Positions 1,937 through 27,204 of a DNA stretch of 62,802 nucleotides are shown one piece after another. The position numbers were made by a program, and so were the translations under genes. The stretch is from an uncultured Nitrospirales bacterium (GTDB lineage: Bacteria; Hydrogenedentota; Hydrogenedentia; Hydrogenedentales; GCA-2746185): the NCBI GenBank assembly GCA_964411925.1, contig CAYPNI010000005.1:1-62802 (forward strand), written 5' to 3'. The first letter of the stretch is position 1, and each line of letters opens with the position of its first letter. The notes under the pieces were generated by a model, which saw only the letters and a list, made by a program, of their open reading frames with translations, was not told the DNA's origin and did no database searches.

Positions 1937-4900
1937 ATGCGTTCTCAAGACTCGATCGCGGACGAATTCGGCGCCTCCCGGGAGCGGGTTCTTACTCTGG
2001 TGTTTACAGATCTCGCGGGATCGACCGCGCTCAAGTCTGAGCTGGGGGATCGCGCCGTCGCGGGGCTCCTTGCGCGGCACCGGGCTCACATCGAACAACT
2101 GGCTGCGGCACGCGATGGACGGGTGATCGACTGGGCTGGCGACGGCTGTTTCCTGACTTTTGAAACGTCGAGCGCGGCGGTCTTGTTCGCGTTGGCATTG
2201 CAGCAAGTTCACGCGACGGAATCCGATCTGCCGGGCGTACGCATTGGAGTTCATCTCGGGGAAATTACGGAGTCATCGCCGCGCGGAGGAGGTGCGACTC
2301 GGGTCGAAGGTCTCGCGGTCGATCTCGCCGCCCGCGTATGTTCATTGGCTCGCCCCAGCCAAGTGTTGATGTCCTCCTTCGTGTTCAACAATGTTCGCCA
2401 ACGAATACGCGGTGAAAACCTGGGGATCGCCATCGCGTGGCGCGCGCATGGACCGTACGAACTAAACGGATTCGACGATCCTTTCGAGATCTGCGAGGCG
2501 GGGATCGTCGGAATCGCTCCGCTCGAACCACCGGTTGGCGGCGAGAAGGCGCATCGAGCGGTGACACCGGGCGAGGAAGACTCGTTTGGCTGGCGCCCGG
2601 CGGTCGGACTCAATGTACAACGCCGTGATCACTGGGTGCTCGAGGAACAGCTCGGCCAAGGTGGATTCGGCGAAGTGTGGCTTGCGGTACATGCGAAGAC
2701 ACGGGCAAAGCGAGTATTTAAGTTCTGCTTCGAGCCTGAGCGCGTGCGCGCACTCAAGCGTGAGGTAGTCCTGTTTCGCCTGCTCAAAGAAACTCTTGGC
2801 AACCGTACCGACATTGCACAGATTGTTGATTGGGATTTTGAACACACTCCGTACTTCATCGAATCGGAGTACACCGAGGGCGGTGATCTGCGCGTCTGGG
2901 CCGCCGCACAGGGCGGACTGGATCAGGTTCCACTCGGGACGCGTCTCGAACTGATCGCGCAAGTCGCCGTGGCGCTTGCCGCCGCCCACAGCGTTGGAGT
3001 GTTGCACAAGGACATAAAGCCCGCAAACGTGCTCATCAGCGATTCGGACGGAAGTTCCGCCCCTCGCGTAGTGCTCACGGACTTCGGCATCGGACTCATT
3101 ACAGATCCGGCGGCGCTGGCTGCGCGCGGAATTACGGCGGTTGGCCTGACGCTCACGCTTTCCGGCGCCTCGACGTCGGAGACGGGGGCGGGTACCCGGT
3201 TGTATGTCGCGCCCGAGTTGCTGGAGGGCAAACCCGCGACGACGTTGAGCGACATCTACTCCGTAGGCGTGGTCTTGTATCAAATGGTCATTGGCGATTT
3301 CACGCACGCGATTGGCACGGGCTGGGAACGGGATGTAGCCGACGAGTTATTGCGCGAGGATATGGCCGCCTGCCTGGACGGCGATCCCGCCCGCAGGCTG
3401 CGCAGCGCGGGTGAGCTCGCAGAGCGTCTGCGCACTCTAAAGTCGCGGCGCGCCGAACGGCACGCACGGCGAGAGATCGAGCGGCAAGCCGAGCATACCC
3501 GCCGACGCCGACGGCAACTTTCGTTCATCGTGGGTGTAGTCTCGGCCATCGCAATTATGGCCGGTCTGTTTTCCTGGCAATTGTACCGGCGGGCCGAGAG
3601 CGAGCGTGGCCTCAACCTCGAAGCACAGGCCGCGCGGAGTGCCGCCGAACAGCAGTTGTACTACGCCCAAATTCAACTTGCCGCGAGCCAGATCGGCCAG
3701 GGTCGTCTGGAGAGCGCGATTCTCGCGCTCGAGAATTCACCCGCGGCTCACCGTAATTGGGAATGGGGTTACCTGGTCCATCTTGCGTTCTCCGATCTAC
3801 TGGCTCCACGCCAATCGACGCCGGCGACCGATGTGGCCACGGTGAATTCCGCGGAGCTATGGCGTGGCTCCCGTGCGGTGAACGCTACCTCCTGGCGCGA
3901 ACACGCCACCGAGATCAACATGATTCATCTGCCGGACGAAGGTACCGTGTTCAGTGTGTCGGACGACGGCACGCTGCGCGCTTGGGATCTGGTCACTGGA
4001 AAATTGGTGCGCACATTCGGCGATGGAAACGACGCCCTTTTCTGCGTCGACTACCACGCTGGAACTGACCGCGTCACGGCGGCAGGATTCGACGGGATTC
4101 TTTACGTCTGGGACGCGAAGACGGGCAACGTACTGTGTGCGGAGGAGGTGCCCGCATCCAGTGCTATTTTCGATGTCGCGATCGATCCGGCTGGCAGAAG
4201 GATTTACACGGCGAGCACCGGTATGGTCGGGGTGTTTGACCTTGAAGAAAAAGCCTTTCTGAAACCTTTTGGTTGCGATGGCGTCGTGTCCGATCTGGCA
4301 ATCGATGCTGAAGGACGCCGACTGACCGCGGTCTCGCTAAATGGCCACGTCATGTCCTGGGATGCGGAATCGCGGGTCCCGGGAACTGTCGTGCGCAATC
4401 CCGGTGTAGAGAATTCGACTTCTGCGATTTTCAGCCCCGGGTTGGATTTGATCCTGTCCGGATTACCGGATGGAAACGCAGTCCTCTGGGACGCACGAAC
4501 CGGCGATGTGAAGTGCAAAATCGCCGGCAAGGTTCCACCGATTACTCACGTCGCATCCTTCAGTCCCGATAGCGCGGCTGTTGCTGTGCCCGATGGACGC
4601 AACGGCGCGGCGGTCTACGAAACCGAGACCGGAGTTCTGCTTGCCCGGCTAGAAGTCCCCGATGACGGAATTCGCTCAGTTGCGTTTCATCCGAAGGGGC
4701 GGCAGGTGCTCGTCGGCGGCGTACAGGGGACGTTGCGTGTGTGGGAACCAGCATCCCAGGATTTGGGGATCGATTCCAACGTCCTGCGAGGTCATACCGA
4801 CACGATCTACTTCGCTGCGTTCAGTCCTGACGGCCGTCGGCTCGCGTCAGCCTCTTTCGACCATACGGTACGGGTGTGGGATGTCGAGACCGGGCGCGAG

Positions 4901-19502: not shown

Positions 19503-21584
19503 TCACTCCGGTATCGCGAAGATTTCGAAGGAATTAAATCGTAGCTCGGTTTCAGCATCGGCCGGGTCTATCCGAAGCGTCGCGGCGGGAGAGAGGTCCG
19601 GGAATGCAAACGAGAGGTAGTTCTCGCCGGCTTGCAGCTTCTGTGCGACGCTGTTTTTCTCGGAGTACGACTCTTCGTCCGCGCGTTTGTAGAAGACCTG
19701 GAACGAGGTCGGCGCGGCGCTCGTGATAATCGCCCTCAGAAAGAGGATTTCGCCTGGATTAACACTGAGATTGGGCGTGAAGAAGATCGGATCGGGGCCG
19801 GAGGAATCGAGGTATAGCGCATTGTCCGCCACGCGGAATTCGACGTAGATATTCCGCTGGAGTTGCGTCAGATCGGTCGAGGCATCGATCGAATAGACCA
19901 ACCGTCCGGCATCCTGGATGCGCTTGACGCGATCGCTGGGCCCCCACAGTTCCGATGCTCCGTCGCTCCAGACCATCTCCCACGCGCCGGCACGCCCCCG
20001 CGGATCGTTAATAACCGTGTGCAGCGTGCGGAAGCTTTCCCCGAACATCTCGGCGTACCCGTGATCGAAGAGGATGAAATCGGGATGGGTCTCTTCTATC
20101 ACACGGAGATGATCGGTCTCCCTGTGCCGAGCTTGAATCGCGACGAACTTACCCGCGTGCCCATAACTTAGGATTTCGGGTGTAGCGCCATACACGACCG
20201 GGTTGTCGTCGTCCTCAGCGAAAACGCGTTTCGCGGCGGCCGCACGGTAGTCCTTGTAGTTCACCCTTCGAATTTCATTCAGTTCGATTGCGGCACCCGC
20301 GATTAACGCAAGAACCACCGCAAAGATGGACCAATAGGCCCACGAGATGCGCTGGATTCGGAAGGAAACCAGCGAGCGGAGCATGAAGCCGATGGCGTAC
20401 GCGCCGGGCAGGGCGAGCGCCGGGGCGGCCGGCCAGACCTGGCGCTCCTGCACGGATATGCCCGGCAAAACCAATACGTACACGCCAATCCAGGACGCGA
20501 TCACGGCGGCGGCGACGCGGTCGCGCCGTCTGGCGAGGATTACCACGCCCAACGCCAGGGGCCAGAACCCGAGGATGTTGAAATCCTTGTCTTCCAGGAA
20601 TCGGTAGGTTACGAGATACACGCCTTCGAAGTAATTCGCGACGTATTGCCGGCGATTCTCCCAGATCACCGCGAGCGCGCTCTTCCCGGTTTTCACGGGC
20701 GAAGACGGATCCTGGGTGAATTCAAAGCGTCTTGCCCAGTCGTCCCCATCCGGAAACGGCCCCATCAGAATTCCGTCGTAGACGATGTACGTCGTGTACG
20801 AAGGCCTGAACGGTTCTACGCCGAGCTTGTCTCGCATAGACGCGGCGTTAGCGCTGGTATACGCCGCATTCCCCAGCGCGTACAGTGCGATCGCGATCAC
20901 GACGGCGGTCCACGTCAACGCGAGGCGACGGTGCGGCGGCCGCTGGGTTCCACGGAGACCAAAATGCGCCCACGTCAACGCCGCCGCGAGAAGGAGTGCA
21001 TGAAAAACCGCCGGACCGCGGATCGCCATGGCGATCGCCAGGGTCGGGATTCCGAGGATGAGCCACCACAGTCGCCCCTGTCGCCAGTACATGGCGATCA
21101 GGGACACTCCCACAATACTGAACAGAATAAACGCGCTTTCGCTCTCTGCCCGGAGTGTCTGATCGATGATGGATGAGGAGGTCGCGACGACGCCCGCCGC
21201 AGCCAACCGGTCGAATACGGTTCCGCCCATGGCGAATACGAGCAACGCCGCCGCAGGCACGATCAGGACGCTGCACACCATCGAGAGGGCGGCGGCCGTT
21301 TGCGCCCAGCCCTTCCCGGTGAATTCAACGAGCAACCCCAACGCGGTCGCAAGTCCGTATTGATTGACGCGGAGGGACAGTCTGGCTTCATTGGGAGTCC
21401 CTGTGAGATCGGTCCATGCTTTACTGAGGACGTACAAATCCCCGGTCACACCCACCGGATCGCTGTTTGCCCAGCGTTGGATCCGCGCGAAAACGGCAAA
21501 CACCAACAGCAGGGCCGCTAAAATCCAGATCAGGTAGATGGAGCTTCGTCGCAGCGCTTGCTCCCACGATCCCGCCAACTTCAT
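19503..21584 (-). CDS. GT-C-like multi-pass membrane glycosyltransferase with C-terminal periplasmic beta-sandwich
   Basis: About 11 TM segments, acidic residues in first loop (SDPVGVTGD), ESESAF ArnT-like motif; C-terminal LYLDSSGPDP...SEKNS...GEN...LRIDP domain. Confidence 0.55.
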   Translation of the reverse strand: MKLAGSWEQALRRSSIYLIWILAALLLVFAVFARIQRWANSDPVGVTGDLYVLSKAWTDLTGTPNEARLSLRVNQYGLATALGLLVEFTGKGWAQTAAALSMVCSVLIVPAAALLVFAMGGTVFDRLAAAGVVATSSSIIDQTLRAESESAFILFSIVGVSLIAMYWRQGRLWWLILGIPTLAIAMAIRGPAVFHALLLAAALTWAHFGLRGTQRPPHRRLALTWTAVVIAIALYALGNAAYTSANAASMRDKLGVEPFRPSYTTYIVYDGILMGPFPDGDDWARRFEFTQDPSSPVKTGKSALAVIWENRRQYVANYFEGVYLVTYRFLEDKDFNILGFWPLALGVVILARRRDRVAAAVIASWIGVYVLVLPGISVQERQVWPAAPALALPGAYAIGFMLRSLVSFRIQRISWAYWSIFAVVLALIAGAAIELNEIRRVNYKDYRAAAAKRVFAEDDDNPVVYGATPEILSYGHAGKFVAIQARHRETDHLRVIEETHPDFILFDHGYAEMFGESFRTLHTVINDPRGRAGAWEMVWSDGASELWGPSDRVKRIQDAGRLVYSIDASTDLTQLQRNIYVEFRVADNALYLDSSGPDPIFFTPNLSVNPGEILFLRAIITSAAPTSFQVFYKRADEESYSEKNSVAQKLQAGENYLSFAFPDLSPAATLRIDPADAETELRFNSFEIFAIPE

Positions 21585-21747
21585 GGATCAACCCGACTCC
21601 CCAACAGCGTGGCGCCTTTGCAACCGTCCCCTAGTTGGATGGCCGATCCTCGAAATCGGTTACAAATCCTGTTGTCGCCTGGATCGGACCCCTGCGTCTC
21701 GAGATCGCGCCTATGTCGGCCGGCCTCGGAAGTGCGTGAATCAGACA

Positions 21748-23673
21748 TCATGGCTTGACGACAGTTATCGCCCGTGTCTCCTCAGCCAGTATCTGACCGG
21801 CGGCGTCAATCGCCCGAATTTTCACGTGAGCCGGCATCGATTGCGTGTCGATCTCGACCACGGAGTCGAATCCTGGCATGACGTCACGGTACTGGGGGAA
21901 ACTGCGGTAGACGTCGCCTCGGGAGAGCGGATATCGTGCGGTTGCAATCCGTGCGGCATCATCCCAAATCTCGACACTGGCAACGGAATGAGGTGACACT
22001 ACCCATCCCCTGGAGGATATCCGTCCGGAAGGCGTGGCTTCGACGGCCACGTTTATCAGCGTCGGATAGTCCTTCGAGATTGGGGAAATTGAGTGCTCCA
22101 GGGACTTATTGAAGAGGACGTTGGGTTTTCCTCCCGGATACTCCCCCGGTTCGACGATGCGCATCCGTCCCGCCGCGACATCGTCCCGGTCAATCCCGTC
22201 GAACTGATACTCGCTGGGTTCTCGAACATAGACTCTCTGCGTTCCCCGGCTAAACAGGTATCGCCGGGGGTGCCAACCCTGCTCGATCTTGAATTCGTAT
22301 CCTTGTTCAATGAAGTACAGCGGTAGCAGTTGGTAGAACGCCTTGAAGAGCCAGCTGGCCCCGGGTGCTTCCTTCGTGATGAACAGGAAATCGATTTCCT
22401 CGGACTCAACCAATTGCACGACGCGCCGCATGAATGCGGATCGCAGATACGGATCCATGGGTTTGTTGCTCTGCCTCACACTACGGTAGACGCTCAGGTA
22501 CTTTCCGTACTGCCGCATGTTGTCGTGTGTGTACACCGCCCGCGGACTGGACGTCACGCGTACGAATGGCGTCTTGGACGTCAATTCGATCGCCATGAAC
22601 AGATGGAACAGGCTGATCGCGCACAGGAAGACGGCGAGGGCGCCTGCTGCGAGGGGTCGATGCAGCGACCTTAGGTGCTCGACAAATTGAAGATGAAATA
22701 TCGGGGCCAGGACGAGGAACGGAAGCAAATACTTCGGGGACGTCAGGTCCCTGATTCCATAGAGCAAGAGCAGAATCGTTAGTCCGGTAATCACTGTTCC
22801 AACGGTTCGAAACCTCGCGGCTTGCCAGAGAAGGTAGACGCCATAGATCGCCAGCAGCGCCATCATCGGCAGAGGCATGGAGCTAAGGAGCATGTTCAGT
22901 CGCCAACGCCAGTCCTGCAGGCGATCTGCATACTGACCTTGAATGCGAATGATCTCCCACAGTTCGGCGAACGGAAACAGGCCCACGACCCATGCGAAGA
23001 AGAGCGTCCCGCAGACGCCGAGGACGAAAATCAATCCATTCGAGATTCTTCGGTCTGGAAATCCAGCGATCCTCCACAGGAGAAACGGAGCCCCAAGGGC
23101 AAAGTCGAACCGGAACAAGACACTTGCTGCGAACACCTCCGCCACCAGGACGACCGACATCGGCCTGAGACCGGATTCTCCGTTCCGCGGTCGCGACAGG
23201 AAGACCGCAAACAGAAACATGCACATTCCGTAAACTGACGAGTTTGGGTATAGCATGGTCATAATGACCTCTTGCTGGGAGGCCACAACGATCAGTCCTG
23301 CACCGACGAATACGAGACTATGCGTAATTCGATAGATGAAAGCGGCGTAGAGACAAATCGTCAATGCGCCAAACATCGCGGGGAGAAGATATAGCGCCGT
23401 GACGCTACCCGTTAGGTTGAAAACCCAGAAGTACAAGGCGTGCGTCAGCGGCTGGTGTGCGAAGTTGTATAGGGAGAAATCCCCTGTTCTGCCCGCCGGA
23501 AGATTGATGCCGCCGGCAATCAGTTCGAGCGCATCTTGCTCGTAGAAACCTCGGTCGCCGTACGTGGCCAACAGTACGAACGAAAACACGAACAGATGAC
23601 CATGGGAGATCAAAAGGACGCTGCGCCGCCTTGTTGTTGGCGCTTCGATGGCCGCAGTTGGCAACTGGTTCAT
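21748..23673 (-). CDS. GT-C-like multi-pass membrane protein with C-terminal Ig-like domain
   Basis: About 10 TM segments, EQD acidic motif after TM1, AHQPL loop, SPKYLLPF; C-terminal RGWVV...VEIWDD...RGDVYRSFPQY...PGF Ig-like module. Upstream ATG 23778 is an alternative start. Confidence 0.5.
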   Translation of the reverse strand: MNQLPTAAIEAPTTRRRSVLLISHGHLFVFSFVLLATYGDRGFYEQDALELIAGGINLPAGRTGDFSLYNFAHQPLTHALYFWVFNLTGSVTALYLLPAMFGALTICLYAAFIYRITHSLVFVGAGLIVVASQQEVIMTMLYPNSSVYGMCMFLFAVFLSRPRNGESGLRPMSVVLVAEVFAASVLFRFDFALGAPFLLWRIAGFPDRRISNGLIFVLGVCGTLFFAWVVGLFPFAELWEIIRIQGQYADRLQDWRWRLNMLLSSMPLPMMALLAIYGVYLLWQAARFRTVGTVITGLTILLLLYGIRDLTSPKYLLPFLVLAPIFHLQFVEHLRSLHRPLAAGALAVFLCAISLFHLFMAIELTSKTPFVRVTSSPRAVYTHDNMRQYGKYLSVYRSVRQSNKPMDPYLRSAFMRRVVQLVESEEIDFLFITKEAPGASWLFKAFYQLLPLYFIEQGYEFKIEQGWHPRRYLFSRGTQRVYVREPSEYQFDGIDRDDVAAGRMRIVEPGEYPGGKPNVLFNKSLEHSISPISKDYPTLINVAVEATPSGRISSRGWVVSPHSVASVEIWDDAARIATARYPLSRGDVYRSFPQYRDVMPGFDSVVEIDTQSMPAHVKIRAIDAAGQILAEETRAITVVKP

Positions 23674-23963
23674 TCGGTCGTCCGATACTGGTGCTCTGAA
23701 TCCGGTCGCGTCAGCGCCGTGGCGGGGGGCGCCATGGGGCTGAAAACGCCACGGGATTATGGCAAATGCGAGGTCCAATAGGACATTGGCTTTTGCGGCT
23801 CCCGTCGGACAATAACACCTATGGTTTCAGGCACTTAGGGTGGCCGATCCTCCGCCCCTCGAATTGATAATCGAAATTGGCTGTGACAAATCCAGCCGCT
23901 CCTGACACTAATACGACGCGGATCAACGCGCCGACCGTACACGGTCTGACATGAGGAGAAATC

Positions 23964-24818
23964 GTGATGACGAAAGCACTTTCAGTCTTGGTTCTTGCGG
24001 TTGCGGTTTTGCTGGCCTGCGGAGTCGCCTCCGCGCAGACGCATACCGGAAACGTGACGATTACCGGACAAGCCATCGTCCTGCAATCCAACGGGAACGG
24101 CAACGTCGTGCCCGGAAACTTCATCGTTGGCGGTACGAATCCCAAGCAGTTCTACTGGGACGGCATCAACCGCTGGCAGTTCAATTCTCCATTGAAGGTA
24201 ACGGGCGATCTCGAGGCGAACCTCGTCCGCACTGGCGTATCGGCGAACACGGGCGTCACTGACATCTACATGGTCTTCGGCAACCAGGCAACCGGAAAAT
24301 TCATCCGTTGGCGCGCGCCGAACAATCGCTTTGAAACGAGTTCCAGCCTGCAGATCGAGGGCACGGGCACGGTAAACATTCTGGAGATCACGGGTGGCTC
24401 GGATTTCGCCGAGGACTTCAACGTGAACGATTCGAGCGATGTCGAACCCGGCACGGTGGTAGTCATCGACGCGGAGAACGCGGGCCAGCTCAAGGTCAGC
24501 CAGACGGCCTATGACCGCACGGTCGCGGGAATCGTAAGCGGCGCGGGCGGGCTGAGTGTCGGGATGCGCATGGGCCAAAAGGGCACCGTGGCGGACGGCG
24601 ATCATCCGGTGGCGCTTTCGGGCCGGGTCTACTGCAAGGTGGACGCGACGCTGGCCGCGGTCGCCCCGGGCGATCTGCTGACGACGTCGAACACGCCGGG
24701 CCATGCGATGAAGGTGCTCGACCACGCGCAGGCGACGGGCGCCATTATCGGTAAGGCGATGACGCCACTCGCGCAGGGCGAGACGGGCCTTGTGCTGGTG
24801 TTGGTCTCCCTGCAGTAG
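23964..24818 (+). CDS. Secreted fibre-like protein with C-terminal Peptidase G2-like intramolecular chaperone/autocleavage domain
   Basis: GAGGAG RBS; Sec signal ending ASA-Q; two W-x4/5-R(W/F)-x4-L-x-(V/I)-x-G beta repeats; SDFAE at 24399-24413 followed by EPGTVVVID...VAGIVS...VALSGRV.CKVD...PGDLLTTS..PGHAMK...IIGKA. Confidence 0.6.
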   Translation: MMTKALSVLVLAVAVLLACGVASAQTHTGNVTITGQAIVLQSNGNGNVVPGNFIVGGTNPKQFYWDGINRWQFNSPLKVTGDLEANLVRTGVSANTGVTDIYMVFGNQATGKFIRWRAPNNRFETSSSLQIEGTGTVNILEITGGSDFAEDFNVNDSSDVEPGTVVVIDAENAGQLKVSQTAYDRTVAGIVSGAGGLSVGMRMGQKGTVADGDHPVALSGRVYCKVDATLAAVAPGDLLTTSNTPGHAMKVLDHAQATGAIIGKAMTPLAQGETGLVLVLVSLQ

Positions 24819-24837
24819 TTCCGAGTTGGACGCATCG

Positions 24838-24872
24838 CGCTGAGGGAGGCGTAGAAGACGCCTCCTTCAGCG
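24838..24872. terminator. Strong 15-bp GC-rich stem-loop downstream of the fibre gene (no U-tract); terminator or RNA-stabilising hairpin
   Basis: CGCTGAGGGAGGCGT-AGAAG-ACGCCTCCTTCAGCG with one G-U pair. Confidence 0.45.
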
Positions 24873-24962
24873 TCGGACAGTTGAATGGTATAGCTCGAGC
24901 GATGGACGATTCGGGCGATCGTTAGACGCGCGGCGGTCCTATCCCGTACATTGATAACACGT

Positions 24963-25562: not shown

Positions 25563-26082
25563 CCACGACGAATACAGCGATTCAATCGGCGACACCGGCG
25601 AGGCAACGTCACCTGAATGGGCGTCCGTCCTCGACGCGGTTCGCGCCGAGAGACTCTCGCTCGAAGCCATGAACGCGCGCGTCGTCCAGCGTGTCATGTC
25701 GAATCTTCAGTTCGTAGACGCCCCGCATCCGACGGCCGCGTCCCCTCGATCGCGCGCTGCCGTCTGGCGATACGCCGGCGCGTTTTCGGCCGCGTGCGGA
25801 GTCGTTCTCGCCGCCGGGCTCATTGCGTCCCGTTCGCCCGAACCGAGCGGGGGTGAAGTACCGCTCGTCATTGAATCCGCCAAGGTCCGGGTTCCACAAG
25901 ATCCGGGCGTCATCCAGCTCAAACCTGCGCCCGACACACAGTCGCTCCAGCAGGCGCTTGAAGCGCTTCCGGACGGCAGCCGCGTAGACCTCCAAGCGGT
26001 CGAGTTGCGCGGTGGCTTCGTCTTCAGGAAGCCGATGACGATCGTCAGTCAAAACGGTACAACCGTCATAGGCCGTAGTTAG
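25555..26082 (+). CDS. Putative single-pass anti-sigma factor ending in a beta-helix N-cap-like segment
   Basis: Overlaps the sigma gene stop; central TM (AGAFSAACGVVLAAGLIA); C-terminal SLQQALEALPDGSRVDL...FRKPMTIVSQNGTTVIG. Confidence 0.6.
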   Translation: MNSHDEYSDSIGDTGEATSPEWASVLDAVRAERLSLEAMNARVVQRVMSNLQFVDAPHPTAASPRSRAAVWRYAGAFSAACGVVLAAGLIASRSPEPSGGEVPLVIESAKVRVPQDPGVIQLKPAPDTQSLQQALEALPDGSRVDLQAVELRGGFVFRKPMTIVSQNGTTVIGRS

Positions 26083-26271
26083 CACCCGCGAAACCTTCCT
26101 CACCCCCGGTTCGTGTTCCTCCCTTGAATCACACCTGATCCGGCCCCCGGTCTGCCAAGCCGCTCCTCGATCCGCGGACCCAGTGCAACAAGCTTGCGGA
26201 GATATATAGGGCGCAAAGTACGCGCACTGGTTCCCGGTAGACCGAGCTCGCGTGAGCAGGAGAGCCTACGA

Positions 26272-26982
26272 ATGACATTGCCCAGCATTCCTTCGGGCAC
26301 GACGAGCCGCGAGTACCTCCGGATCGGTGGTGGATATGGCGTTGGCGCAGTGGGGAGCTCCCCGGCCGGCGGCGCGGACATCGACCGGGCAGGCAACGTC
26401 GCCGCCGATGGCGACCTGACCATCGACGGCATGGTTTCGGCCGGCGCCGGCTTGACGTTTGCCGGCGCCTTCTCGCGCGGTCCGGGCGGGGTGGACAAGA
26501 CCTGGCAGGTCGCGCTGAGCGCGACCGACTTCTGGCCGGACGCGACCCTGGGGCCCACGGGTCCCGTGTTGACCGTGTTTTCCGATAATCGGTTCGAGGC
26601 GCAGGCGCTGACGTATGCCGACGCGACTGCCAACCGTGCGTATGCCGTGCTGTTCCTGCCACCGGACTTCGACGGAAGTCCGCTGCGCTTTTCGGTGTAC
26701 TGGACTTGCACCACCGGCGGCGCGTCCGGGTCCGTCGTGTGGACCATTGGAGGCGTCTCGGCAGGAGACACCGAAGACATTACCGGGGCACCCTCGGTGA
26801 CGTACTACGCGGTCAGCGACGCGCTCACGGCGGTCGGTCGCTTGCAGATTGCAGACATCACCTACAGCGCGCCGGCCGCCAAACCGACACTGTGGTTTCA
26901 GTTGTTGCGGGATGGGCCGCACGCGTCCGACACGCTGAATGCAGCAGCCAAACTAATCGGCGTACGCGTGTCGTACGCGTGA
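26272..26982 (+). CDS. Hypothetical protein resembling phage virion (tail/fibre) beta-sandwich proteins
   Basis: AGGAG RBS; Gly-rich beta N-terminus; C-terminal LFLPPDFDG...FSVYWT...GSVVW...FQLLRDG...DTL.AAAKLIGVRVSY, recalled from uncharacterised phage structural proteins (no search run). Confidence 0.5.
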   Translation: MTLPSIPSGTTSREYLRIGGGYGVGAVGSSPAGGADIDRAGNVAADGDLTIDGMVSAGAGLTFAGAFSRGPGGVDKTWQVALSATDFWPDATLGPTGPVLTVFSDNRFEAQALTYADATANRAYAVLFLPPDFDGSPLRFSVYWTCTTGGASGSVVWTIGGVSAGDTEDITGAPSVTYYAVSDALTAVGRLQIADITYSAPAAKPTLWFQLLRDGPHASDTLNAAAKLIGVRVSYA

Positions 26983-26997
26983 AAAGGGAGAGATGAC

Positions 26998-27204
26998 GTG
27001 GCCAGAGAAGTCGATATTCTGGGATTTTTGAGCGCGCGGCGCGTGCACGATACCGAGGCGTTGCGGTTGCAGCTTCGCGTCAACGACGCCGTGACGGATG
27101 AGGAAAAGTCCGCGCTGCGCGTGCGGCTTGAGGATCACCTGCTCGCGCCGCCCGACCCCGGTGAGTTTGCGAAGGCAGAGGCGCCAGTCGATCAACGCGC
27201 GTGA
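26998..27204 (+). CDS. Small hypothetical protein (68 aa), cotranscribed with the phage-like gene
   Basis: AAAGGGAG RBS, GTG start 15 bp after the upstream stop; charged helical composition. Confidence 0.55.
   Translation: MAREVDILGFLSARRVHDTEALRLQLRVNDAVTDEEKSALRVRLEDHLLAPPDPGEFAKAEAPVDQRA

Follow-up and report, generated by a model that had tools for sequence, protein, structure and literature searches.

Self-cleaving intramolecular chaperones are textbook devices of phage fibres. One of them, the chaperone of the pre-neck appendage protein gp12 of the Bacillus phage phi29, is classified as Pfam PF11962 and MEROPS family G2 (PDB 3SUC series). To our knowledge, among cellular, exported self-cleaving chaperones only the S74-type ones on the fibres of one predatory bacterium have been studied. 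The combination of an exported, phage-type fibre and a chaperone that cleaves itself is documented in Bdellovibrio bacteriovorus (S74 type; PMC10769870), where the mosaic adhesive trimers (MAT) are Sec-signal-bearing, phage-like trimeric fibres, 13 of 21 of which end in an autoproteolytic chaperone with demonstrated self-cleavage (Caulton et al. 2024, PMC10769870). Here, the C-terminal domain of a fibre-like protein encoded in the window (the whole 62,802-nucleotide stretch of DNA that was analysed) is identified by sequence comparison as related to the phi29 gp12 G2 chaperone, though divergent and more compact, and as a domain in which the Asp and Glu of the catalytic positions are present. 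The features of the locus are collected in Table 1.

Table 1. Features of the fibre locus, with positions numbered from the first nucleotide of the window
Feature	Position	Strand	Basis or remark
CTGTGACAAATCC element, candidate promoter or operator	23881..23893	+	~75 nt upstream of fibre start; three-sequence alignment
Fibre precursor gene	23964..24818	+	284 aa from GTG 23964, or 283 aa from ATG 23967
Predicted Sec signal peptide, residues 1-24	23964..24035	+	Read from sequence; cleavage ASA|QTH; orthologues
Predicted mature N-terminal part, residues 25-146, ~122 aa, beta-rich	24036..24401	+	Low-confidence model, 4 orthologues
Repeat 1, KQFYWDGINRWQFNSPLKVTG, residues 61-81	24144..24206	+	Weak repeat statistics
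Repeat 2, KFIRWRAPNNRFETSSSLQIEG, residues 112-133	24297..24362	+	Weak repeat statistics
Predicted autocleavage motif GGS|DFAEDF, residues 144-152	24393..24419	+	Predicted scissile bond S146-D147
Compact Peptidase_G2-like C-terminal domain, residues 147-284 (D147-Q284), 138 aa	24402..24815	+	Sequence, profile, fold
16-bp hairpin, candidate terminator, attenuator or mRNA stabiliser	24837..24873	+	-36.9 kcal/mol, z -5.6
ECF sigma factor, 203 aa	24951..25562	+	Sigma70_r2, r4_2; same position in L002, L003
Putative single-pass anti-sigma factor, 175 aa	25555..26082	+	Same C-terminal end in L002, L003
Partner module, anti-sigma residues 130-173	25942..26073	+	Peptidase-derived HMM, E 2.7e-5

The open frame that the earlier note had read at 23964-24818 is intact, with a GC3 of 0.80 that is like that of the adjoining genes. 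Given that the sequence-collection record of the fibre protein has 283 aa, translation may start at ATG 23967. Residues 1-24 (MMTKALSVLVLAVAVLLACGVASA, followed by |QTH) are Sec-signal-like, the AxA-Q(T/V)H cleavage site is kept in four full-length orthologues (P0003-P0006), and a comparable hydrophobic start was observed in 86 of the 102 family members with a sufficient N-terminus, in support of the cleavable signal peptide previously claimed. A lipoprotein reading of the LLAC sequence in the fibre protein was rejected, given that the Cys is not kept in the orthologues and AxA|Q is. The sequencing runs that contain the stretch are DNA metagenome runs only.

It had also been claimed that a GGS-DFAE sequence at 24402-24413 opens a C-terminal domain of ~140 aa. 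DFAE is encoded at exactly these positions, and the domain that begins with it comprises 138 aa, has a confident model and has thousands of relatives, well beyond anything that chance would give. Alignment places SDFAE on S691, D692 and E695 of phi29 gp12 (GGNTWS691|D692FAE695YF), residue for residue. Among the relatives, the Asp, Glu and Phe of the motif were retained in 260 of 260, a G-G-small run ahead of the Asp is conserved, and the P1 residue is Ser, Ala, Gly or Cys.

Pfam Peptidase_G2 was the best match of the fibre protein, with a score of 15.9 bits (E 0.0088) that misses the gathering cut-off of 25 bits; sub-threshold matches to the same model were found in 25 of 88 relatives (best E 3.6e-5). 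With BLASTP, ITGG-SDFAE was aligned to phi29 gp12 within residues 684-740, with S691, D692 and E695 included (E 0.002). A profile comparison with Peptidase_G2, which the earlier note had proposed as a check, was performed with hhalign between the family profile and a profile of 121 canonical G2 domains, and gave a match (E 7e-5, probability 63%) in which the two domains keep the same order of segments between the motif and the final strand, with 128 aligned columns spanning both domains. In this alignment, the ~55-aa insert of gp12 (~741-795) is missing from the fibre domain. Reciprocal HMM searches scored all members, with a median of 11-12 bits, compared with maxima of 7.1 and 1.1 for reversed and shuffled decoys. 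Homology to the canonical G2 domains, though remote, extends over the whole domain. The earlier identification of a Peptidase_G2-type autocleaving chaperone thus holds as to G2 homology, for which sequence, profile and fold evidence argue, but has to be qualified by the missed Pfam cut-off. A Peptidase_S74 identity was rejected: the fibre protein had no match to PF13884 even at E values up to 10, 96 of 254 motif-matching relatives have Ala or Gly where Ser would be expected at P1, and there is no aligned Lys.

The AlphaFold model of the C-terminal domain is all-beta and confident, with pLDDT values mostly of 86-98 from residue ~150. Matches to this model in BFVD included entries named 'preneck appendage protein' (TM 0.69-0.71), as well as long phage proteins, which matched at their C-termini. 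In the PDB, Foldseek matched the model to phage capsid cement proteins, the best solved structures being those of Pam3 (8hdt_G), phiCD508 (9gay_C) and XM1 gp53 (7kmx_a), at 11-16% identity and a TM of about 0.5; phi29 gp12 structures were not among the best 50 PDB matches. Sub-threshold matches to Pfam XM1_gp53_minor_capsid were found in 19 of 88 family members. Given that the gpD head-decoration fold of ECOD includes the G2 chaperone (PMC13397572), the capsid cement matches fit a G2 assignment. A PDB sequence search with the fibre protein returned noise only, and a PDB search with the family profile gave no match to the C-terminal domain and matched only Bdellovibrio MAT fibre repeats.

The cement proteins, being uncleaved, also bring in an explanation in which the C-terminal domain would stay uncleaved, as a stable gpD-like (beta-tulip) knob for trimerisation or binding that is itself the functional, partner-binding part, with the variable N-terminus as no more than a spacer or anchor. 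Such a knob would account for the identity of the best solved-structure matches, for the weak XM1_gp53_minor_capsid matches, for the missed G2 cut-off and for the presence of Ala at P1 in about a third of family members. It would also fit the distribution of conservation, in that the median identity across phyla is 67% in the C-terminal domain and 29% in the preceding 140 aa, and the fact that the periplasm has no ATP, whereas release in phi29 is reported as ATP-dependent (PMC13397572). What it would not lead one to expect is that no variation is seen in the Asp, Glu and Phe, which coincide exactly with the gp12 catalytic positions, that the G-G-small run ahead of the Asp is conserved, and that in all of the best 150 representatives listed (150/150) no residue follows the domain, as would be the case for a removable chaperone. 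The phage relatives described below likewise have the domain at fibre ends, and the uncleaved knob is considered unlikely.

The family defined by the C-terminal domain is very large: 26,531 representative clusters at 50% identity were obtained at E<=1e-3, and word-index matches to the domain numbered more than 5,594. Members occur in Planctomycetota, Bacteroidota, Verrucomicrobiota, Acidobacteriota, Nitrospirota and other phyla, are mostly chromosomal and signal-peptide-bearing, and have beta-rich fibre repeats ahead of the C-terminal domain; no Pfam model for the family and no literature on it were found. On this evidence, bacterial proteins of many phyla, mostly exported and numbering in the tens of thousands, end in a G2-type chaperone. 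Cultured carriers include Larkinella soli and Chryseolinea sp. H1M3-3 (locus L014). By comparison, searches of phage collections yielded little. A tblastn search of 50,697 phage records with the C-terminal domain and a single-sequence pattern scan of IMG/VR gave no match, and an alignment-based scan of IMG/VR gave two loci only; on two phage contigs, fibre-like proteins without a signal peptide end in this compact domain. The term 'domesticated', applied earlier to the fibre, understates the case, because the family is very large, cellular and nearly absent from phage collections.

The phage-type domain, together with a nearby gene at 26194-26982 that could not be assigned, could be taken to mean that the fibre gene is what is left of a prophage tail-fibre gene in decay, and that its hydrophobic N-terminus arose by chance. 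Such decay is at odds with the intact frame and neighbour-like GC3 described above, with the same synteny in orthologues of other assemblies, with a signal peptide that is conserved family-wide and with the scarcity of the family in phage collections. Neighbours of assignable family are glycan-synthesis or regulatory genes, and those at 19503-23778 and 26194-26982 had no phage-family match. For the latter gene, no match was obtained in Pfam, in PHROGs, in the phage records or in the PDB; being absent from the orthologous loci, it is not counted in the system. The PHROGs search returned nothing useful. A prophage remnant is extremely improbable, given that conserved synteny and a signal peptide kept throughout the family effectively refute it.

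The part of the fibre between the signal peptide and the C-terminal domain is much less widely recognisable, being found in just four orthologues; a region-restricted search with residues 25-141 matched the query protein alone. AlphaFold modelled this part with pLDDT values of 44-89 and strands at residues 63-125, and residues 31-110 were poorly modelled (pLDDT 44-72). Two beta-strand repeats had been described here. Both strings are present, but their likeness is weak, given that the score for repeat 1 against repeat 2 of the fibre protein was reached by 124 of 2000 shuffles; in the four orthologues, the repeat score was reached by 1-20 of 1000 shuffles. GIGT-type repeats that match Bd2133 (8ond, E 2e-10) occur in longer family members and not in the short window protein.

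In the window, the fibre gene is followed by genes for an ECF sigma factor and for a protein with one hydrophobic span, the gene for which overlaps the sigma gene by 8 nt. Given that a Pfam search found no known anti-sigma domain in this 175-aa protein, its naming as an anti-sigma factor rests on position and topology. The fibre/sigma/anti-sigma order is kept in the orthologous loci L002 and L003, and a second order, sigma/anti-sigma/fibre, occurs in Nitrospirales. An ECF sigma gene was found nearby in 2 of 80 species loci, in addition to the window, L002, L003 and L008. A general ECF sigma link of the family was rejected on the basis of the 2/80 figure; the ECF link holds in a sub-clade only. 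Upstream of the fibre gene, the TGTGAC core of the CTGTGACAAATCC element is invariant in the three orthologous loci, as judged from a three-sequence alignment only, and sigma-70 promoter and terminator scans returned 0 sites. The hairpin lies just past the fibre stop codon, between the fibre and sigma genes, and is not followed by a T-run. By eye, GC-rich inverted repeats are present at the equivalent place in L002 and L003.

Analysis of gene neighbourhoods across the family revealed a second kind of partner. Most often, the next gene downstream encodes a secreted peptidase: among 68 same-strand genes in this position, at least 31 encode peptidases, which belong to at least seven unrelated families. 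The L084 fibre, for example, has a trypsin-like partner. Partner proteins end in a shared module of ~55 aa that is beta-helix-cap-like. In Bacteroidota partners, this module is placed just ahead of a T9SS sorting domain. An HMM built solely from the C-terminal 62 aa of the peptidases detected a module ORF in 66 of 81 fibre-gene loci; 53 of the 80 module ORFs lie directly downstream of the fibre gene and 79 of the 80 are on the same strand. When the same HMM was applied to the 362 ORFs of the window, its sole match was the anti-sigma factor, and the anti-sigma factors of L002 and L003 were also matched (E 7.6e-10 and 3.4e-7, respectively). The Nitrospirales anti-sigma factors of the sigma/anti-sigma/fibre order gave no score with this HMM. 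A Foldseek search with a 71-aa model of the module gave no significant match; its likeness to beta-helix lyases (PL6 AlyGC, TMq 0.60) is suggestive only. This pairing of fibre genes with module-bearing genes is absent from the earlier reading, and the downstream peptidase pairing and the shared module are new findings. The tight pairing of fibre genes with secreted peptidases that differ in catalytic class and yet have one small end module in common points to a general mechanism of docking or display. That an anti-sigma factor carries this module as well suggests an input to ECF signalling of a new kind.

Two other explanations of these gene associations were considered. In the first, the C-terminal domain and the partner module would be tags for one envelope export or sorting machine, such that the two share a trafficking route and do not bind each other directly. 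The C-terminal position of both elements, the placement of the module ahead of the T9SS sorting domain in Bacteroidota and the great diversity of the partner payloads are all consistent with sorting tags. It is nonetheless difficult to reconcile with the 138-aa length and the enzyme-like invariant Asp/Glu pair of the C-terminal domain, which are unlike known sorting tags, with the presence of the module on an inner-membrane anti-sigma factor that needs no export tag, and with the neighbouring genes, among which no candidate machine recurs; shared trafficking is held to be quite unlikely. In the second, the fibre would be a mere target or neighbour of the ECF sigma factor, with a role at the cell surface that is related to envelope stress or glycans, and would not be physically linked to the anti-sigma factor. 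ECF operons frequently adjoin members of their regulon, a strong hairpin parts the fibre gene from the sigma gene, and the conserved upstream element suggests that the fibre is regulated separately. Since this leaves unexplained both the anti-sigma module, which is common to the peptidase partners of the wider family, and the recurrence of the fibre with sigma and anti-sigma genes in two gene orders, it is regarded as very unlikely.

The explanation that is, on balance, thought somewhat probable is an exported, self-processing fibre with a G2-type chaperone that is paired with module-bearing partners and that, in the window, feeds an ECF switch. The gene product would be a Sec-exported precursor comprising the signal peptide, the small beta-rich part and the compact G2-type chaperone. 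Following export, the chaperone domain would drive trimerisation of the N-terminal part, after which the S146-D147 bond would be cut by an Asp/Glu mechanism. Release of the fibre probably needs no ATP, because an exported protein has no access to ATP and because the domain lacks the ~55-aa insert of its phage counterpart. The fibre, or its conserved C-terminal piece, may then bind proteins that end in the beta-helix-cap-like module. In most genomes the binding partner would be a secreted peptidase; in the window it would be the periplasmic end of the anti-sigma factor, and the fibre would therefore be an extracytoplasmic input to, or co-regulator of, the adjacent ECF switch, which would sit inside a surface-glycan locus. 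Against this mechanism, the conservation of the C-terminal domain is unusual for a discarded part, phi29 release is reported as ATP-dependent (PMC13397572), and co-occurrence of fibre and module is no proof of contact.

A broader proposal, which is put forward tentatively as a possibility, is that of a widespread, previously undescribed two-part extracytoplasmic system in which a Sec-exported fibre, folded and cleaved by a compact, ATP-independent G2-type chaperone, offers either a cleavage-exposed end or a released trimer as the dock for the ~55-aa module. If true, the module would be fused to many payloads, including peptidases of at least seven families, T9SS cargo and the anti-sigma factor of the window, and assembly of the fibre would serve either to present enzymes on the cell or to control an ECF transcription switch. 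If G2 cleavage works in the periplasm in an ATP-free manner, the domain may also be of use in protein engineering as a means of trimerisation with self-removal.

Comparison with described systems sets this protein apart from each of them. The gpD-like cement proteins (Pam3, phiCD508 and XM1 gp53) differ in being free-standing, uncleaved capsid proteins. We know of no D-x-x-E cleavage motif in gpD-like capsid cement proteins. The protein resembles phi29 gp12 in having its chaperone at the extreme C-terminus behind a beta-rich fibre part, in the common motif G-G-x-S|D-F-A-E-x-F with aligned Asp and Glu, in later colinear blocks (VAGIISGAGG / IIGVISETAG and HPVALxGRVYxKVD / WHVVGLLGQIAVRID) and a final hydrophobic strand, and in a predicted all-beta body that may be of the gpD-like fold class (PMC4690869, PMC13397572). 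It differs from gp12 in that its domain is of 138 aa, compared with ~163, lacks the ~55-aa insert, falls under the Pfam cut-off and would have to act without ATP; in that it has a signal peptide, a chromosomal gene and no part in a virion; and in that its fibre part, at ~122 aa, is very small and contains no beta-helix of the pectate-lyase type.

The signal peptide is shared with the Bdellovibrio MAT fibres, and longer family members have GIGTxxPxxxLxVxG fibre repeats like those in structures of the Bd2133 and Bd1334 type. The MAT chaperone, however, is of the S74 type (Ser-Lys, SDxxxK), whereas that of the window fibre is of the G2 type (Asp/Glu); MATs combine a conserved ~130-aa N-terminal domain with variable tips, whereas the family described here has a variable N-terminus and a conserved C-terminus; and no partner module or pairing with peptidases or anti-sigma factors has been described for MATs. 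The MYRF ICA domain of animals (S74 type; PMC3742440) is also a phage-type self-cleaving trimerisation domain in a membrane-linked transcription switch, but belongs to another chaperone family, and its cleavage frees the transcription factor itself, whereas the window fibre is separate from the sigma/anti-sigma pair, to which any link is inferred. Finally, in comparison with cell-surface signalling ECF systems (TonB-dependent transducer, FecR-type anti-sigma factor and FecI-type sigma factor; PMC9249621), the window has neither a TonB-dependent receptor nor a FecR domain, and the periplasmic part of its anti-sigma factor is a ~45-aa beta-helix-cap-like module that has no Pfam family; in common with those systems, the gene for an extracytoplasmic protein adjoins a sigma/anti-sigma pair, and extracytoplasmic contact with the periplasmic end of the anti-sigma factor is proposed.

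The fibre gene is an uninterrupted frame of 284 residues from its GTG codon, with a GC3 of 0.80 similar to that of adjoining genes. Given that the database entry for the protein has 283 residues, the true start may be the ATG at 23967. The signal peptide proposed in an earlier note on this DNA was supported: the N-terminus, MMTKALSVLVLAVAVLLACGVASA↓QTH, has Sec-type n-, h- and c-regions, and the AxA↓Q(T/V)H cleavage site is retained in four full-length orthologues. Since the Cys is not retained in these proteins, a lipoprotein is disfavored. The DFAE motif lies exactly where that note had placed it, and the domain that follows, expected to be ~140 residues, comprises 138 (D147-Q284). Both strings quoted there as an N-terminal repeat are present, but the repeat is statistically weak, its score being reached by 124 of 2000 shuffles; in four orthologues, the score was reached by 1-20 of 1000. 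A CTGTGACAAATCC element 5' of the gene may be a promoter or operator and is unlike a typical ECF -35/-10 pair.

The top Pfam match of the fibre was Peptidase_G2 (G2), the self-cleaving intramolecular chaperone of the phi29 pre-neck appendage gp12 (E 0.0088; 15.9 bits, under the cut-off of 25), and sub-threshold matches were obtained for 25 of 88 relatives (best E 3.6e-5). BLASTP against gp12 aligned ITGG---SDFAEDF with VTGGNTWSDFAEYF (pairwise E 0.002), placing S146, D147 and E150 on S691, D692 and E695. Profile-profile comparison of the domain family with 121 canonical G2 proteins by hhalign gave an E of 7e-5 (probability 63%) over 128 columns. From the motif to the final hydrophobic strand, via VAGIISGAGG/IIGVISETAG and HPVALTGRVYxxVD/WHVVGLLGQIAVRID, the two profiles align colinearly, and the compact domain lacks ~55 residues of the phage one. 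In reciprocal HMM searches, all members of each family scored (medians 11-12 bits, maximum 26), and reversed or shuffled decoys reached at most 7.1 and 1.1 bits. On these alignments, the C-terminal domain is classed as a compact, divergent G2-type chaperone; the homology to the Pfam family that the earlier note had claimed is thus borne out as very probable, although the cut-off of that family is not reached.

The AlphaFold model of the domain is all-beta (pLDDT mostly 86-98), with a strand beginning exactly at D147. Foldseek returned "preneck appendage protein" (TM 0.69-0.71) and the C-termini of long phage proteins among viral models; against the PDB it returned the phage capsid cement proteins Pam3, phiCD508, XM1 and BB1, phi29 entries being absent from the top 50 matches. 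The domain may instead be a stable, uncleaved gpD-like knob, as the cement-protein matches and its very high conservation would suggest. Since ECOD assigns the G2 chaperone to the gpD head-decoration fold (PMC13397572), these matches also fit the G2 reading, and the phi29 chaperone is described as beta-stranded, in contrast to chaperones of the S74 type (PMC4690869). An uncleaved knob is opposed by the strictly terminal position of the domain (150 of 150 among the matches listed, in proteins of 200-1000 residues) and by its invariant Asp/Glu pair: the motif Asp and Glu, and the Phe two residues after the Glu, are unchanged in 260 of 260 relatives. The P1 residue varies among relatives (Ser 157, Ala 89, Gly 7, Cys 1), which, with Asp and Glu fixed, fits an Asp/Glu mechanism and rules out a Ser nucleophile of the S74 type.

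At 50% identity, 26,531 representative clusters matched the domain profile with E ≤ 1e-3; 7,344 did so with E ≤ 1e-30. Species-level carriers included Planctomycetota/Phycisphaerae, Bacteroidota, Verrucomicrobiota, Acidobacteriota, Nitrospirales, Hydrogenedentota, Sumerlaeota, Cloacimonadota, anammox bacteria and others, and the window DNA itself was found in sand-filter and bioreactor metagenomes. Median identity between random member pairs was 67% in the domain versus 29% in the preceding 140 residues. Of 102 members whose N-terminus could be used, 86 had a signal-peptide-like start, and GIGTxxPxxxLxVxG repeats of longer members match the solved mosaic adhesive trimer (MAT) fibres of Bdellovibrio (8ond, E 2e-10). 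Family gene contexts are chromosomal; no cultured-phage record matched the domain, and IMG/VR contained only two relatives, both without a signal peptide. That the gene is a prophage remnant is effectively ruled out, since its synteny and signal peptide are conserved and its codon usage resembles that of the host.

In the family at large, an immediately downstream gene on the fibre gene's own strand usually encodes a secreted peptidase. Pfam scans of 68 such genes identified Astacin (11), Peptidase_C10 (6), Trypsin and Trypsin_2 (4 each, which may overlap), Reprolysin-like (3), Peptidase_M43 (3), Peptidase_S8 (2) and Peptidase_M4 (2) domains; 8 carried Por_Secre_tail, the T9SS tail, and in two of these (L007, L014) the N-terminal part had no recognised Pfam family. 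These otherwise unrelated peptidases have in common a C-terminal module of ~55 residues (consensus ...P(Y/F)xTxxxGxxxxxxGGxxxIxxGxYxExxxxxKxxTLxAxxGxVxIG, then stop). With an HMM built solely from 33 peptidase C-termini, 66 of 81 fibre loci proved to contain an ORF bearing the module; 53 of 80 such ORFs lay within 300 bp downstream of the fibre gene and 79 on its strand. The same HMM matched the putative anti-sigma protein of two orthologous loci, L002 (E 7.6e-10) and L003 (E 3.4e-7), and that of the window (E 2.7e-5, residues 130-173), the sole match among 362 six-frame window ORFs. Given that the window anti-sigma factor carries the module of the peptidase partners, the window cassette is a variant of the general fibre-plus-partner pair.

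No Pfam family covers the module, which bears a weak resemblance to DUF1565, a beta-helix family, over the first ~45 positions of the latter. The best superposition of its model (helix plus strands, pLDDT 73), which was not significant, was with PL6 beta-helix lyases, at their N-terminal cap. Anti-sigma proteins of three loci with the order sigma/anti-sigma/fibre end in ...PMR(I/L)xVVxGxLRVE..., which by eye resembles the second half of the module; those of L010 and L015 gave no score with the module HMM, and in the main scan that of L008 had no match with E ≤ 1. The domain and the module may alternatively both be sorting tags for one envelope machine.

In the window, the fibre gene is followed by a strong hairpin, an ECF sigma gene and an overlapping gene for the 175-residue putative single-pass anti-sigma protein, all within a glycan-synthesis locus. 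The order fibre/sigma/anti-sigma recurs in L002 and L003, where the 175-residue protein is conserved to its last residues and is thus not truncated. A TTGAAC/TTGAAT element lies between hairpin and sigma gene. An ECF link was found at only 2 of 80 species loci, which are both from Nitrospirales and have the gene order sigma/anti-sigma/fibre, an order shared by L008; the adjacency of fibre and ECF genes may be purely regulatory. Genes at 26194-27204 are missing from L002 and L003 and so probably lie outside the cassette; their products matched nothing in Pfam, PHROGs, phage records or the PDB.

Coordinates of features in the window and in loci carrying fibre-family genes
Feature	Locus	Position	Description
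Membrane proteins	window	21748-23778 and 19503-21584 (-)	two, large, multi-pass, 5' of fibre gene within glycan locus; one weak PMT/GT-C-like match, other without family
CTGTGACAAATCC element	window	23881-23893	~75 nt 5' of fibre start; TGTGAC core invariant in all 3 orthologous loci
Fibre gene	window	23964-24818 (+)	
DFAE motif	window	24402-24413	
Hairpin	window	24837-24873	directly 3' of fibre stop; GC-rich, -36.9 kcal/mol, z -5.6, no T-run
GC-rich inverted repeats	L002; L003	~4700-4740; ~1515-1560	hairpin-equivalent position
Further ORFs	window	26194-27204	262-aa (or 236-aa) protein with Gly-rich beta N-terminus; 68-aa ORF
Anti-sigma genes	L010; L015; L008	3937-4389; 3903-4370; 6478-6951	
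IMG/VR relative	L090	1070-2098	low-GC genuine phage fibre-like protein; compact domain at end, ...AQYADLAERY...; N-terminus Mtd/DUF2793-like (by eye)
IMG/VR relative	L089	3693-4538	high-GC, 281 aa, ADCAEDF; adjoining gene terminase-like (by eye)
Tandem partner genes	L035; L043; L065; L050	5458-9765; 1510-5603; 5479-9295; 3396-5160	2-3 module-bearing genes after one fibre gene
Hybrid sensor kinase/response regulator	L007; L017	2900-6196; 81-2090	GAF and AraC-type HTH; also upstream regions of L021, L026, L033, L041
Small secreted family	L079; L053; L024	2013-2444; 5460-6077; 5481-5852	124-205 aa; 8 more loci

Two further gene families were observed near fibre genes. In Bacteroidota, the hybrid sensor kinase gene lies 5' of the fibre gene on the same strand (17 related genes in 16 loci), often with a ~230-residue ORF between them. 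In Verrucomicrobiota and Planctomycetota, a small secreted family without a Pfam assignment (start ...YAIDWFSIDGGGG...YTLTGTLGQ...) was repeatedly encountered 3' of fibre/partner pairs.

With G2 homology and catalytic residues in place, a mostly exported, cellular family and genetic pairing with module-bearing partners established, the following scheme is proposed. After Sec export, the C-terminal domain would trimerise the N-terminal part and cut at S146↓D147, yielding a mature piece of ~13 kDa and a fragment of ~14.5 kDa; trimerisation and cleavage are each, and equally, reasonably probable. The periplasm contains no ATP. Given that phi29 release is reported to be ATP-dependent (PMC13397572), the compact domain presumably acts without ATP, to which the missing insert may relate. 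The partner module would bind the fibre, most plausibly at a part common to all fibres, either the C-terminal domain or the ...LEITGG(S/A) end, which is conserved and would remain after cleavage; the chances of such direct binding are about even. In the surface-glycan locus of the window, fibre assembly or occupancy would be coupled to anti-sigma stability and through it to the activity of the ECF sigma factor. The scheme as a whole, an exported self-processing fibre with a module partner, here ECF-linked, is slightly favored.

Full-text literature searches returned no description of the compact G2 family, its conservation pattern or the partner module. New aspects are how large and widespread the family is, its conservation pattern, which is reversed (variable at the N-terminus, conserved at the C-terminus), and the module linking fibres to peptidases or an anti-sigma factor; the fibre-partner system may realistically prove to be an envelope device of a new kind. 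Mechanistically, phi29 gp12 is the nearest relative. Biologically, the nearest precedent is provided by the exported phage-like MAT fibres of Bdellovibrio, 13 of 21 of which have a proven self-cleaving S74 chaperone (PMC10769870); exported fibres with autocleaving chaperones are thus not a new idea. Whereas the MAT chaperone is of the S74 type, that of the window family is a compact, apparently ATP-free G2-type version, which is itself new.
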